This document shows positions 47,966-64,000 of a DNA stretch of 64,000 nucleotides, one piece after another. The DNA is from Trueperaceae bacterium. GTDB lineage: Bacteria; Deinococcota; Deinococci; Deinococcales; Trueperaceae. Where the stretch lies: positions 3,136,001-3,200,000 of the forward strand of contig OZ243913.1 in the NCBI GenBank assembly GCA_965213705.1. Direction: 5' to 3'. The position numbers and the translations under genes are program-made. A model generated the notes under the pieces. It ran no database searches. It was not told where the DNA came from and was given only the letters and a program-made list of their open reading frames with translations. How positions within the stretch are numbered: position 1 is the stretch's first letter; each line of letters begins with the position of its first letter.

Positions 47966-49330
47966 ATGGCTACCGCACTACAAGCGACCAATCACGGTTG
48001 GTTCGAAGCACCCGAAATTCAAGCCCTGTTCGAAGAGGGTTCTTCGCAGGGCACACTTCAACTCGACGACGTTCGTCAGGCCTTCGACGCGCTCGTCTTA
48101 ACGGACGCGTTCGAGGTCGACGCAGCCGAGGACTTCGGCGTCCTCACGGACGTGCTGAACGCTCGAGGTATCGAGCTGGAAAGCGACTCGGACGGCGCGC
48201 AACAGGAACTCGACGACGCTGAGGTTGACGCTGAAATTGACGGCGAAGACGACTTGAGCCTGGACGACGCGGACGAAGGTTTTGAGGCCGACGGCGACTT
48301 AGACGGCGACCTGGACGAAGACCTAGACGACCCGGACGAAGGTGTGAGCGACCGCGATGCCGCCGAGGAGGCGGCCAGCGACGAGTTCTACGCCCGTTCT
48401 GCCAACAAGGTCGACACCACCGACCCGGTACGGCACTACCTGAGCGAAATCGGCCGAGTGCCGCTCCTGACCCGGTCCGAGGAAATCGACCTGGCGCGGC
48501 GCATCGAGGCGGGCGAGGAAGCCAAAGAGCGGCTCGAGGCCGCCGGTTTGTCTGAGCGTGACCGCCGCGCGCTCCAGCGGGTTGTAGAAGATGCCGACAT
48601 GGCTCGTGGCAGCATGATTAATGCCAACCTGCGCCTCGTCGTGTCGGTCGCCAAAAAGTACAAGGGGCGCGGCCTGAGCCTCCTCGACCTTATCCAAGAG
48701 GGCAACCAAGGACTGATGCACGCGGTCGAAAAGTTCGACTACAAACGCGGCTTCAAGTTCAGCACCTACGCCCACTGGTGGATTCGCCAGTCGGTGAGCC
48801 GCGCGGTCAACAACCAGTCGCGCACCATCCGCCTGCCCGTCCACATGATTGAGACCGTGAGCAAGCTGCGCGCCGCCAGCAAACGGCTCGAGCAAGACCT
48901 CTCCCGCGACCCCACCTTCGAGGAAATCGCGCACGCCCTGGGGCCGGACTGGACAGCCGAAAAGGTCGAGGAGACGATTCAGTTCGCCCGCGAACCCATG
49001 TCGTTAGAAAAGCCCGTCGGCGAGGACGAAGGCACCTACCTGGGCGACTTTATCGAGGACGAGAGCATCGTCTCCCCCGTCGAGCAGACGATGCAGACTG
49101 CGCTTGGCGAAACCCTGGACGAAGCCTTCGGCTTTCTGGACGACCGCGAAGCTAAGATTCTCAAGATGCGCTACGGACTCTTAGACGGCGAAGAGCACAC
49201 GCTGGAGCAAGTCGGCGACGTGCTCGGCGTGACCCGCGAACGGGTACGCCAACTCGAAGCCCGCGCCATGCGCAAGCTCAAGTACTTCGAGAAACGCAAC
49301 CGCAAACTGCGCGACTTCTTAAGCGTGTAA
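47966..49330 (+). CDS. Second RpoD-family sigma factor (group 1/2 paralog)
   Basis: [61 protein letters not shown]...[10 protein letters not shown]. Confidence 0.93.
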
Positions 49331-56402: not shown

Positions 56403-57527
56403 ATGAACCAAGGACCGACCGGCATCGTCATGATGAATTTGGGAGGGCCGAAAAACCTCGACGAGGTTCAGCCTTTCTTGCTCAAACTGTTCGAAGACCG
56501 CGAAATCATCCAACTGCCCGTGCAAAAATACCTGGGACCGTTTATTGCCAAGCGCCGCACCAAGAGCGTGCAACAAAACTACGCCGACATCGGCGGCGGC
56601 TCGCCCATCCTGAAGTGGACCGAAGCGCAGGGCCGCGGCATGGTCGAACGCCTGGACTTTCTAAGCCCGGAGACCGCTCCGCACAAGTTTTACGTGGCGT
56701 TTCGCTACGTTCACCCGTTTAGCGAAGACGCGCTGCAAACCATGAAGGCCGACGGGGTGAAACGCGCCGTCGCTTTTACCCAGTACCCGCAGTTTTCCTG
56801 CTCGACGACGGGCTCGTCTTTGAACGAACTGTGGCGGGCGGCGCGGCGGGTGGGGCTGCAGGACGCGTTTGAATGGAGCGTCATCGACCGCTGGCCCACA
56901 CATCCGCGCTTTATCGAGGCGATGACCGAGACGGTCAAACAGGGTTTGCAGCAGTTCGACGAACAAGAGCGCGACGACGTGCTGATTTTGTTCAGCGCGC
57001 ACTCGCTGCCGCTCGACGTTATCAACCGGGGCGACGCCTACCCGGCCGAAATCGGCGCGACGGTTCACGAGGTGATGAAGCGGCTCGAGTACGGCCACGA
57101 ATACCTACTCGCCTACCAGTCGGACGTGGGGCCGGTGCCCTGGCTCGGGCCGAGCACCGAAACCGTGATTGAGGACTTGGGCGCGAAAAAGCGCAAAAAC
57201 GTCCTCGTCGTCGGGATAGCCTTTACGAGCGACCACATCGAAACGCTCCACGAACTCGACATCGAGTACGGCGAACTCGCGCACGAGGCGGGCATCACCA
57301 ACTACCGACGTGCGCCCGCGCTGAACGGGCTGCCGCTGTTCCAGGACGCGCTGGCCGACGTCGTGTTGGAGCACCTGCAAAGCGGCGAAGCCTGCACCAA
57401 ACAGTACGGCCTCCGCTGCCCCGGCTGCGTCAACCCGCAGTGCCGCAATATCCTGAACCCAGTTGCCCCCTACAAGCGTTCGAACGTGAGCGCGTCGAAG
57501 AAGAACAAAGAGTATCAGGCAGTTTAA
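56403..57527 (+). CDS. hemH: Ferrochelatase, animal-type with [2Fe-2S] ligands
   Basis: NLGGP, IGGGSPI, YPQFSCSTTGSSLN, FSAHSLP, WLGP, FTSDHIETL.ELDIEY, C-terminal CPGCVNPQC. Confidence 0.93.
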   Translation: MNQGPTGIVMMNLGGPKNLDEVQPFLLKLFEDREIIQLPVQKYLGPFIAKRRTKSVQQNYADIGGGSPILKWTEAQGRGMVERLDFLSPETAPHKFYVAFRYVHPFSEDALQTMKADGVKRAVAFTQYPQFSCSTTGSSLNELWRAARRVGLQDAFEWSVIDRWPTHPRFIEAMTETVKQGLQQFDEQERDDVLILFSAHSLPLDVINRGDAYPAEIGATVHEVMKRLEYGHEYLLAYQSDVGPVPWLGPSTETVIEDLGAKKRKNVLVVGIAFTSDHIETLHELDIEYGELAHEAGITNYRRAPALNGLPLFQDALADVVLEHLQSGEACTKQYGLRCPGCVNPQCRNILNPVAPYKRSNVSASKKNKEYQAV

Positions 57528-63203: not shown

Positions 63204-64000
63204 ATGAGCACACCCACCCAAACCGTCGCCATCGTCGGAGGAGGCGTGTCCGGGCTGGCGACGGCTTTTTTCGTCCGCCAAGCAAAGCCCGACTGGCGCG
63301 TCACCGTGTTTGAAAAAGAGTCTGAGCCCGGCGGCAAGGTGCGCTCCTCGGTGCAAAACGGTTTCACCTTCGACTGGGGGCCGAACGGCTTTCTGGCGAA
63401 CGTCCCGGAGACGGTAGAGTTGGCAAAAGCGCTCGGTTTGACAGAGGTTTTGCAACCCGCCGCCGACACGGCCAAGTACCGTTTTCTCTATCAAGACGGC
63501 GGACTGAGGCCGCTGCCCGACGCGCCGCCCAAGTTCCTCACGACCGAGTTGCTGTCGCCGTTCGAAAAGGTGCGGGCAGGGCTCGAGCTGTTCAGCCGCC
63601 CCGGCGACCGCGAAGAAACCGTTTATGCCTTTGTAGCCCGCCACTTCGGCAAGGGTTTCGCCGACGCTCTCGCGGGCGCGGCGGTCCTGGGCATTACCGC
63701 AGGCGACGCGAAAGAACTCAGTGTAGACGCCCTATTTCCGAGGTTGCGAGCCCTCGAGCGGGAACACGGCAGCCTTCTCCGCAGCCTCGTCAAACAGCAG
63801 CGCGAGGCGAAACAGCGTCCCAAATCGGCGGGGCGTTTGACGAGCTTCAAGGCGGGGGGCATCGGCACACTCGTCGAAACTTTGCGAACGCGGCTCGGTG
63901 ACAGTTTTCAAACCGGCACCACCGTCACCGGTCTCTCCCCCACCGCTCGGGGCTACACCTTGGCACTTTCGAACGGTGAGACCTTCAGCGCCGACGCGGT
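63204..64000 (+). CDS. hemY: Protoporphyrinogen/coproporphyrinogen oxidase, HemY family (runs off window end)
   Basis: Manual translation: VAIVGGGVSGLATA, FEKE..PGGKVRS, FTFDWGPNGFL, GITAGD...LSV..LFP. Confidence 0.88.
   Translation, partial: MSTPTQTVAIVGGGVSGLATAFFVRQAKPDWRVTVFEKESEPGGKVRSSVQNGFTFDWGPNGFLANVPETVELAKALGLTEVLQPAADTAKYRFLYQDGGLRPLPDAPPKFLTTELLSPFEKVRAGLELFSRPGDREETVYAFVARHFGKGFADALAGAAVLGITAGDAKELSVDALFPRLRALEREHGSLLRSLVKQQREAKQRPKSAGRLTSFKAGGIGTLVETLRTRLGDSFQTGTTVTGLSPTARGYTLALSNGETFSADA

Follow-up and report, generated by a model that had tools for sequence, protein, structure and literature searches.

A mitochondrial-type ferrochelatase in Trueperaceae, from a bacterial lineage that is likely the closest relative of the mitochondrial enzymes

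The ferrochelatase gene and its product

The DNA analysed here (the window) is a stretch of 64,000 nucleotides from a Trueperaceae bacterium, called a soil-type bacterium, whose assembly consists of one contig and is 98% complete. On the forward strand, which also carries the hemY gene discussed below, positions 56403..57527 encode a ferrochelatase of 374 residues (mitochondrial-type PpfC), as judged from the open reading frame, homology and alignment. Profile searches returned Pfam PF00762 at 369 bits (cut-off 27) and TIGR00109 (hemH) at 359.5 bits (cut-off 124.6). The conserved first strand, which begins at residue 6, argues for Met1 as the probable start, while some gene callers use Met10 (365 residues); an N-terminal targeting peptide is absent. 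This single-copy gene, which encodes the sole ferrochelatase of the host genome, is flanked by trxB and an ArsR regulator gene, and its GC content (0.608, genome 0.609) and GC3 (0.81, similar to the neighbours) are those of its surroundings. A promoter scan near the gene found no sigma-70 site, and terminator matches were at chance level. Elsewhere in the window, positions 47966-49330 encode a sigma-70 factor of the primary type with an acidic N-terminal region.

By sequence, the best match among solved structures is human FECH (E 6e-138, 463 bits), with 58% identity over 345 columns, as compared to 352 bits and 48-49% identity for the yeast ferrochelatase and 113-127 bits and 26-27% identity for the Bacillus and Listeria CpfC. 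The original prediction had recognized long blocks of human FECH in the protein, and every block quoted was found in the translation. The animal-type label which it derived from them holds insofar as the enzyme is mitochondrial-type and is otherwise too narrow: the protein is equally close to some protist-type proteins (61.5% identity to P0197, versus 58-61% to vertebrate FECHs), it does not have the animal insertion and its tail is non-opisthokont-like.

With the full-length human chain 7ctc_A as the numbering reference, residues 5-349 correspond to human residues 68-413 with one gap. The catalytic His200 (57000..57002; human His263) is invariant in 30 of 30 aligned rows and the catalytic Glu280 (57240..57242; human Glu343) is likewise invariant in the 30-row alignment. 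Residues ~29-58 (56487..56576) align with the active-site lip, a segment whose role is described in PMC13564367 and which, in the passages concerned, is the mark of PpfC and is absent from CpfC; in the alignment, about 13 of its residues are missing from CpfC-type proteins. Four cysteines had been proposed as cluster ligands, and they do align with those of human FECH: Cys133 (56799..56801) with Cys196, and the C339-x2-C342-x4-C347 motif (57417..57443) with C403/C406/C411. Both cysteine motifs are kept in 120 of 120 bacterial proteins (the query and 119 homologues, one arachnid match being excluded). A [2Fe-2S] cluster is thus predicted on Cys133/339/342/347, as in human FECH, and membrane binding would be a further predicted property. 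Calling this ligand arrangement typical of animals as opposed to most bacteria was an overstatement, as bacterial C-terminal clusters are known from passages of PMC8529089 and PMC13564367.

The AlphaFold model (pLDDT 86) matches the class II chelatase fold, with equivalents of the catalytic His and Glu present. It superimposes on human FECH (1HRK) with a TM-score of 0.88 and an rmsd of 1.9 Å, an overlay which is not independent since the model was built from an alignment including vertebrate FECHs. Over residues 331-350, in the region of the cluster tail, pLDDT values were 83 and 65.

Haem pathway and hem operon in Deinococcota

The host genome contains hemA, B, C, D, E, L, F and Y. No chdC and no hemJ were found in it, and neither hemN nor ALAS gave a match above cut-off. 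Its hem operon is split into pieces. The hemY gene (63204..64000, 471 residues, extending past the window end) had been noted about 6 kb from the ferrochelatase gene; it lies 5.7 kb downstream and seems to have been replaced too, but it is not part of the ferrochelatase operon. Its product is of the Myxococcus-like PgoX type and falls outside the CgoX-type Thermus/Deinococcus clade. More generally, Trueperaceae HemY is closest, among solved structures, to Myxococcus PgoX and stands apart from Thermus- and Deinococcus-type HemY in the tree, and Trueperaceae HemF is bacterial. A eukaryote-like origin of the whole pathway was considered and rejected on these grounds, along with the result for ALAS.

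The distribution of these genes was followed across 299 Deinococcota genomes, in which family f1 was taken as Trueperaceae from its named close homologues. The mitochondrial-type enzyme is encoded in 88 of the 101 other f1 genomes (68-93% identity, some partial), the Truepera radiovictrix orthologue being 83% identical. Any match at all was obtained in 90 of these 101, the two remaining ones being weak in G252 and ordinary (32%) in G282. None of the 197 genomes of the other four families encodes it, the best match being at most 37% identical. Hence the enzyme does not cluster with ordinary Deinococcus or Thermus HemH, the outcome that would have spoken against the original prediction, and it is separate from them in trees. 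Genes for hemF were found in 76/101 f1, 9/12 f3 and 0/185 f2, f4 and f5 genomes, and chdC in 1/101 f1, 0/12 f3, 107/108 f2, 10/15 f4 and 61/62 f5 genomes. The unpublished genome G267 counts among the 88 and the 76, and none of the claims rests on it. Because kin are not independent, these counts represent a few events rather than hundreds, and the order of genes in the operon is the stronger evidence.

Gene order was compared in 20 hand-chosen regions. In a Thermaceae-type genome (L067, f5), it reads hemA-C-D-B-sensor-regulator-hemE-chdC-cpfC-hemY. In the Trueperaceae region L054, it reads hemA-C-D-B-sensor-regulator-hemE-hemF-FECH, and L050, L051, L055, L058 and L062 are similar. The sensor kinase and response regulator inside the operon (L054:4276-6176; L067:4166-6033) are retained through the pathway swap. 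Trueperaceae have thus likely exchanged the coproporphyrin for the protoporphyrin pathway, with hemF and FECH filling the operon slots of chdC and cpfC. A change of haem pathway had been suspected at the outset, together with a search of the genome for chdC, hemF and hemN; the distribution of chdC and hemF and the operon position now support it.

Taken together, the lip, the presence of hemF and hemY without chdC and the operon position point to a protoporphyrin ferrochelatase that came with hemF and a new hemY. In the mechanism we propose, the ancestor of Trueperaceae would have acquired FECH from another bacterium along with hemF and a PgoX-type hemY, and the acquired genes would have taken the places of chdC and cpfC in the pre-existing hem operon. 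Haem synthesis would start from glutamate (C5 route), reach coproporphyrinogen III and continue through HemF and HemY to the ferrochelatase, which would catalyse the final step, the insertion of Fe2+ into protoporphyrin IX; this pathway would require oxygen.

Several genomes depart from this arrangement. In genus g22 (L052, L053, L061), the FECH gene stands beside the hem-operon sensor kinase, while hemF (0/14) and hemY (0/6) were not detected; such genomes are possibly protoporphyrin scavengers. Neither hemF nor hemY was found in G201, G206 and G211, and nine f1 genomes, some with and some without the FECH gene, give no hemY match. The lack of hemF in g22 and of hemY in these nine genomes indicates that the FECH gene also persists without the pathway. 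L059, another f1 sequence, groups apart from five other Trueperaceae rows, and more than one acquisition is therefore possible.

Within f1, chdC together with a CpfC-type hemH was found solely in G282 (L049, G282:C1:936600-940700; L355). In an RpoB tree of 29 genomes, it is nested in f1 as sister to G298 (support 98), and f3 stands beside f2. Its cluster reads chdC-hemE-hemY-hemH, an order unlike that of L067, without hemF, and its second HemY groups with those of its f1 relatives. G282 has likely reverted to the coproporphyrin pathway by a later transfer. In family f3 (L063, L064), hemF occurs without chdC, HemY groups with that of Trueperaceae and hemH has an internal cysteine-rich insertion; this family reached the protoporphyrin pathway with another type of hemH.

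The bacterial lineage and its position relative to eukaryotes

A scan of GTDB for the cysteine motifs returned at least 120 rows, with at least 64 from Gemmatimonadota, 29 from Deinococcota, 7 from Chloroflexota, 3 from Streptomycetaceae, 10 without name and 7 others. Among the matches listed, members from outside Deinococcota are 59-75% identical and have the cysteine tail in common, and rows from Acidobacteriota, Binatia and Proteobacteria are only 30-40% identical and without it. In samples of single phyla, the mitochondrial-type enzyme was found in 38/301 Gemmatimonadota, 2/251 Chloroflexota (one being the seed genome) and 0/301 Pseudomonadota genomes; the unpublished G456 counts towards the Gemmatimonadota denominator only. 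The 38 Gemmatimonadota have no chdC (0/38) and mostly have hemF (34/38); 20 hand-picked genomes with CpfC-like matches (34-39%) all have chdC (20/20) and lack hemF (0/20). The closest outgroup is a tail-less grade of 41-50% identity, usually encoded beside a PgoX-like hemY. No relative was found in viral contigs, and on plasmids the best match was 40% identical, with nothing mitochondrial-type in the best 40 of 161 records. The ESM Atlas returned generic ferrochelatase clusters only, Pseudomonadota being the commonest phylum in the two nearest, although the Atlas warns that its taxa are unreliable.

Besides chdC and a ferrochelatase of the native type, the actinomycete Streptantibioticus ferralitis (L222, G301:C66) has a complete cassette for the protoporphyrin pathway, in which hemY-FECH adjoins hemE-hemF-hemA-hemC-hemB. 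In trees, the HemF and HemY encoded there are the sisters of the Trueperaceae proteins (SH-aLRT 99; 92 with f3 included), which suggests a shared mobile module. Two more Streptomycetaceae match the motif (L157, L178). Other unusual arrangements are a Gemmatimonadota region (L207, G433:C5) with a PpfC-like hemH and a PgoX-like hemY, then chdC-hemE-cpfC-hemY side by side; two identical-scoring FECH-type copies in Candidatus Chloroploca mongolica (G300:C116, C135), in which neither hemF nor chdC gave a match; a member of the bacterial clade fused to DUF454 (P0215); and protist FECH models fused to a methyltransferase domain (P0129, P0132).

The careful tree comprised 79 rows and 361 columns (LG+G4). 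Excluded from it were near-duplicates more than 73% identical to another row, incomplete sequences, one Pseudomonadota match (L381) and the outgroups lying farthest away (archaeal, actinobacterial, Leptospira and f3-type hemH). Its eukaryotic rows cover animals, fungi, Albugo, Hondaea, Paulinella, Nonionella, choanoflagellates and proteins with N-terminal extensions; many non-opisthokont rows were called eukaryotic from such an extension and their tree position, and there are no named Amoebozoa, Discoba or ciliates. Eukaryotes and the bacterial lineage group together (100/99). Eukaryotes alone form a clade (100/99) which is monophyletic in 998 of 1000 bootstrap trees; the 23 bacterial rows are supported at 92/90, the placement of Bellilinea (L102) at their base being unresolved, and support for a group of five Trueperaceae rows is 100/95. 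Of 1000 bootstrap trees, none joined the bacteria to opisthokonts and one joined them to non-opisthokont eukaryotes. Quick trees, two of them with a mixture model, also recovered eukaryote monophyly (92-100), the quick mixture-model tree and the tree with nine Pseudomonadota carrying SH-aLRT support only. In the latter, to which a second Chloroflexota sequence and the nine best usable Pseudomonadota matches were added, Chloroflexota branch below eukaryotes (SH-aLRT 90 and 80, unstarred) and Pseudomonadota fall outside. Without L102 and with near outgroups only, the bacterial and the eukaryotic sequences form sister clades (97 and 92). The choanoflagellate FECHs (P0176, P0177, P0181; Didymoeca, Stephanoeca) branch with those of Hondaea and Nonionella, not with those of animals or fungi, which suggests transfer or paralogy within eukaryotes.

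For the root, the outgroup was regrafted on the fixed ingroup topology at 62 positions under LG+G4 and at 18 of those in the other treatments. Every tested root within eukaryotes was rejected (AU p <=0.010 under LG+G4, 62 positions; <=0.008 under PMSF; <=0.020 after removal of 30 or 50 biased sites), the rejection being marginal under SR4 recoding (<=0.042). Trueperaceae as the position of the root likewise failed the test (p <=0.008), which discards this family as donor to eukaryotes. Roots on the eukaryote stem (p 0.42-0.55) and on L102 (p 0.82-0.87) both stand, so that sister and paraphyletic arrangements are not separable. The GARP content is 0.338 in the outgroup, 0.318 in the bacterial ingroup and ~0.25 in eukaryotes, a difference which the removal of 30-50 sites left unequalised; since outgroup and bacterial ingroup are both GARP-rich, the root may be pulled towards bacteria. 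With these tests we infer the direction and timing of the transfers: the bacterial lineage is likely the closest relative, and not a descendant, of mitochondrial FECH, as its sister or its source. This lineage, found in Gemmatimonadota, Trueperaceae and some Chloroflexota and Streptomycetaceae, would already have had the cysteine tail, and would be sister to, or paraphyletic around, all sampled mitochondrial FECHs. The original prediction had left the choice between a eukaryote-to-bacterium transfer and a bacterial sister clade. The latter has held up, and a crown-eukaryote donor is discarded by the rejected roots and by the bootstrap counts.

An earlier donor among eukaryotes has to be weighed separately. 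An early eukaryote might have given mitochondrial FECH to a bacterium, from which it then spread between phyla, and the patchy bacterial range (38/301, 2/251 and 0/301 in the three phyla sampled), the high identity (58-61%) and the tail in common with non-opisthokont eukaryotes would fit such a history. Compositional bias could misplace the root, and a stem-eukaryote donor, before the last common ancestor, would yield an identical sister topology. We nevertheless consider this scenario unlikely: within-eukaryote roots are rejected under four treatments, the bootstrap trees hardly ever join the bacteria to non-opisthokonts and never to opisthokonts, two Chloroflexota sequences branch below eukaryotes with the unstarred supports given above, and the companion hemF and hemY are bacterial. 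It has also been proposed, in passages of PMC8529089, that mitochondrial FECH is of alphaproteobacterial origin. The bacterial lineage could then stem from the same gene, its close relatives having been lost or remaining unsampled, a history which appears less probable still. Indeed, the best identity in 301 Pseudomonadota genomes, a small sample with classes not given, is 42%, the nine usable top matches form a separate outside clade without a Cys196 equivalent, and a closer tail-less outgroup (43-50%) comes from Gemmatimonadota and metagenomes; in its favour, several Pseudomonadota matches have C-terminal cysteines and the phylum is the commonest one in the two Atlas clusters with unreliable taxa.

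Regarding function, a coproporphyrin ferrochelatase, or a role in salvage or iron release instead of de novo synthesis, seems very improbable. Ancestral Deinococcota use the coproporphyrin route, to judge from the distribution of chdC and from passages of PMC5095920, and g22 genomes have the gene but neither hemF nor hemY; yet the host has no chdC to finish coprohaem, the lip is present and all other genes of the protoporphyrin pathway are in the host genome. Contamination of the assembly by eukaryotic DNA, for which high identity to human FECH is the sole point, has next to no probability, given the single contig, the bacterial neighbours, the host-like GC and GC3 and the lack of a targeting peptide, and it is refuted by the family range, with 88/101 relatives and Truepera radiovictrix at 83%. 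The account as a whole, of a protoporphyrin ferrochelatase acquired from bacteria with hemF and hemY and belonging to a lineage sister to or around mitochondrial FECH, is in our judgement probably correct as far as sequence comparison can tell.

Significance and comparison with known systems

Already known were this kind of enzyme and, as a single bacterial representative of the clade, Gemmatimonas. In passages of Nagayasu et al. (2013; PMC3596385), Gemmatimonas aurantiaca is the single bacterium in the eukaryotic 'blue' clade, and in those of Weerth et al. (2021; PMC8529089), C-terminal motifs occur in several bacteria, G. phototrophica being motif-positive; the sample described there includes five Deinococcus-Thermus genomes, none with the motif, and no Truepera. 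Down-regulation of hemH in G. phototrophica has been reported (PMC11406998). Passages of PMC5095920 place Deinococcus-Thermus with HemQ, and those of PMC13468126 count Chloroflexota among minor LECA donors, with no passage on ferrochelatase. Neither Truepera nor Deinococcus is mentioned in the pertinent passages of PMC5115734, PMC4870792 and PMC6078071. Literature listings, which do not cover tree figures, so that an earlier mention is possible, gave nothing further on Truepera and ferrochelatase or haem synthesis, or on a link between eukaryotes and these bacteria. What is new is the family-wide pathway swap within the operon, the breadth of the lineage, the root tests and the likely reversion.

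The tree points to a donor of a core mitochondrial enzyme outside Alphaproteobacteria, contrary to the proposal of PMC8529089. A broader reading can be offered tentatively, with somewhat less than even confidence: mitochondrial FECH, with its Cys196/403/406/411 cluster in place, would have passed from this non-alphaproteobacterial lineage, whose deepest sampled members are Chloroflexota, into the eukaryote stem, and a mobile hemE-hemF-hemY-FECH module would today convert coproporphyrin-pathway bacteria to the protoporphyrin pathway, with switches both ways in Trueperaceae. This family provides a clean natural case of replacement of the coproporphyrin by the protoporphyrin pathway within one operon, plus a likely reversion. 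The role of the [2Fe-2S] cluster of FECH is still undefined according to passages of PMC8529089 and PMC13564367. A bacterial enzyme of this type, with the human ligand set, occurs in a cultured type strain, Truepera radiovictrix, and would make it possible to ask directly whether the lability of the cluster, its sensitivity to NO and the dependence of the enzyme on it predate mitochondria.

Among known ferrochelatases, the human and metazoan FECHs (PDB 1HRK, 2QD3) share with the Trueperaceae enzyme the catalytic residues, the lip and the four ligand cysteines, all of which align. They differ by a one-residue insertion (near query residue 291) found only on the animal side, whereas the Trueperaceae enzyme is without a targeting peptide, has another tail and branches outside the eukaryote clade. 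Past the last cysteine, this tail (CRNILNP) resembles that of non-opisthokont eukaryotes. The HemH of Gemmatimonas aurantiaca and G. phototrophica is a bacterial precedent: sampled Gemmatimonadota homologues are 59-75% identical to the Trueperaceae enzyme, the named Gemmatimonas proteins being compared by description, and the passages of the papers on them contain no multi-phylum clade, Trueperaceae, pathway swap or root test. The PpfC of Caulobacter crescentus (C-terminal cluster) and of Myxococcus xanthus (internal cluster), also compared by description from passages of PMC8529089, are bacterial enzymes with verified [2Fe-2S] clusters; the best Pseudomonadota matches are 35-42% identical to the Trueperaceae enzyme, without a Cys196 equivalent, and branch apart from it. 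Finally, Deinococcus and Thermus HemH (CpfC type) have in common with the Trueperaceae enzyme the fold family and the operon slot, but they are at most 37% identical to it, have neither lip insert nor cysteine tail and are paired with chdC rather than with hemF.
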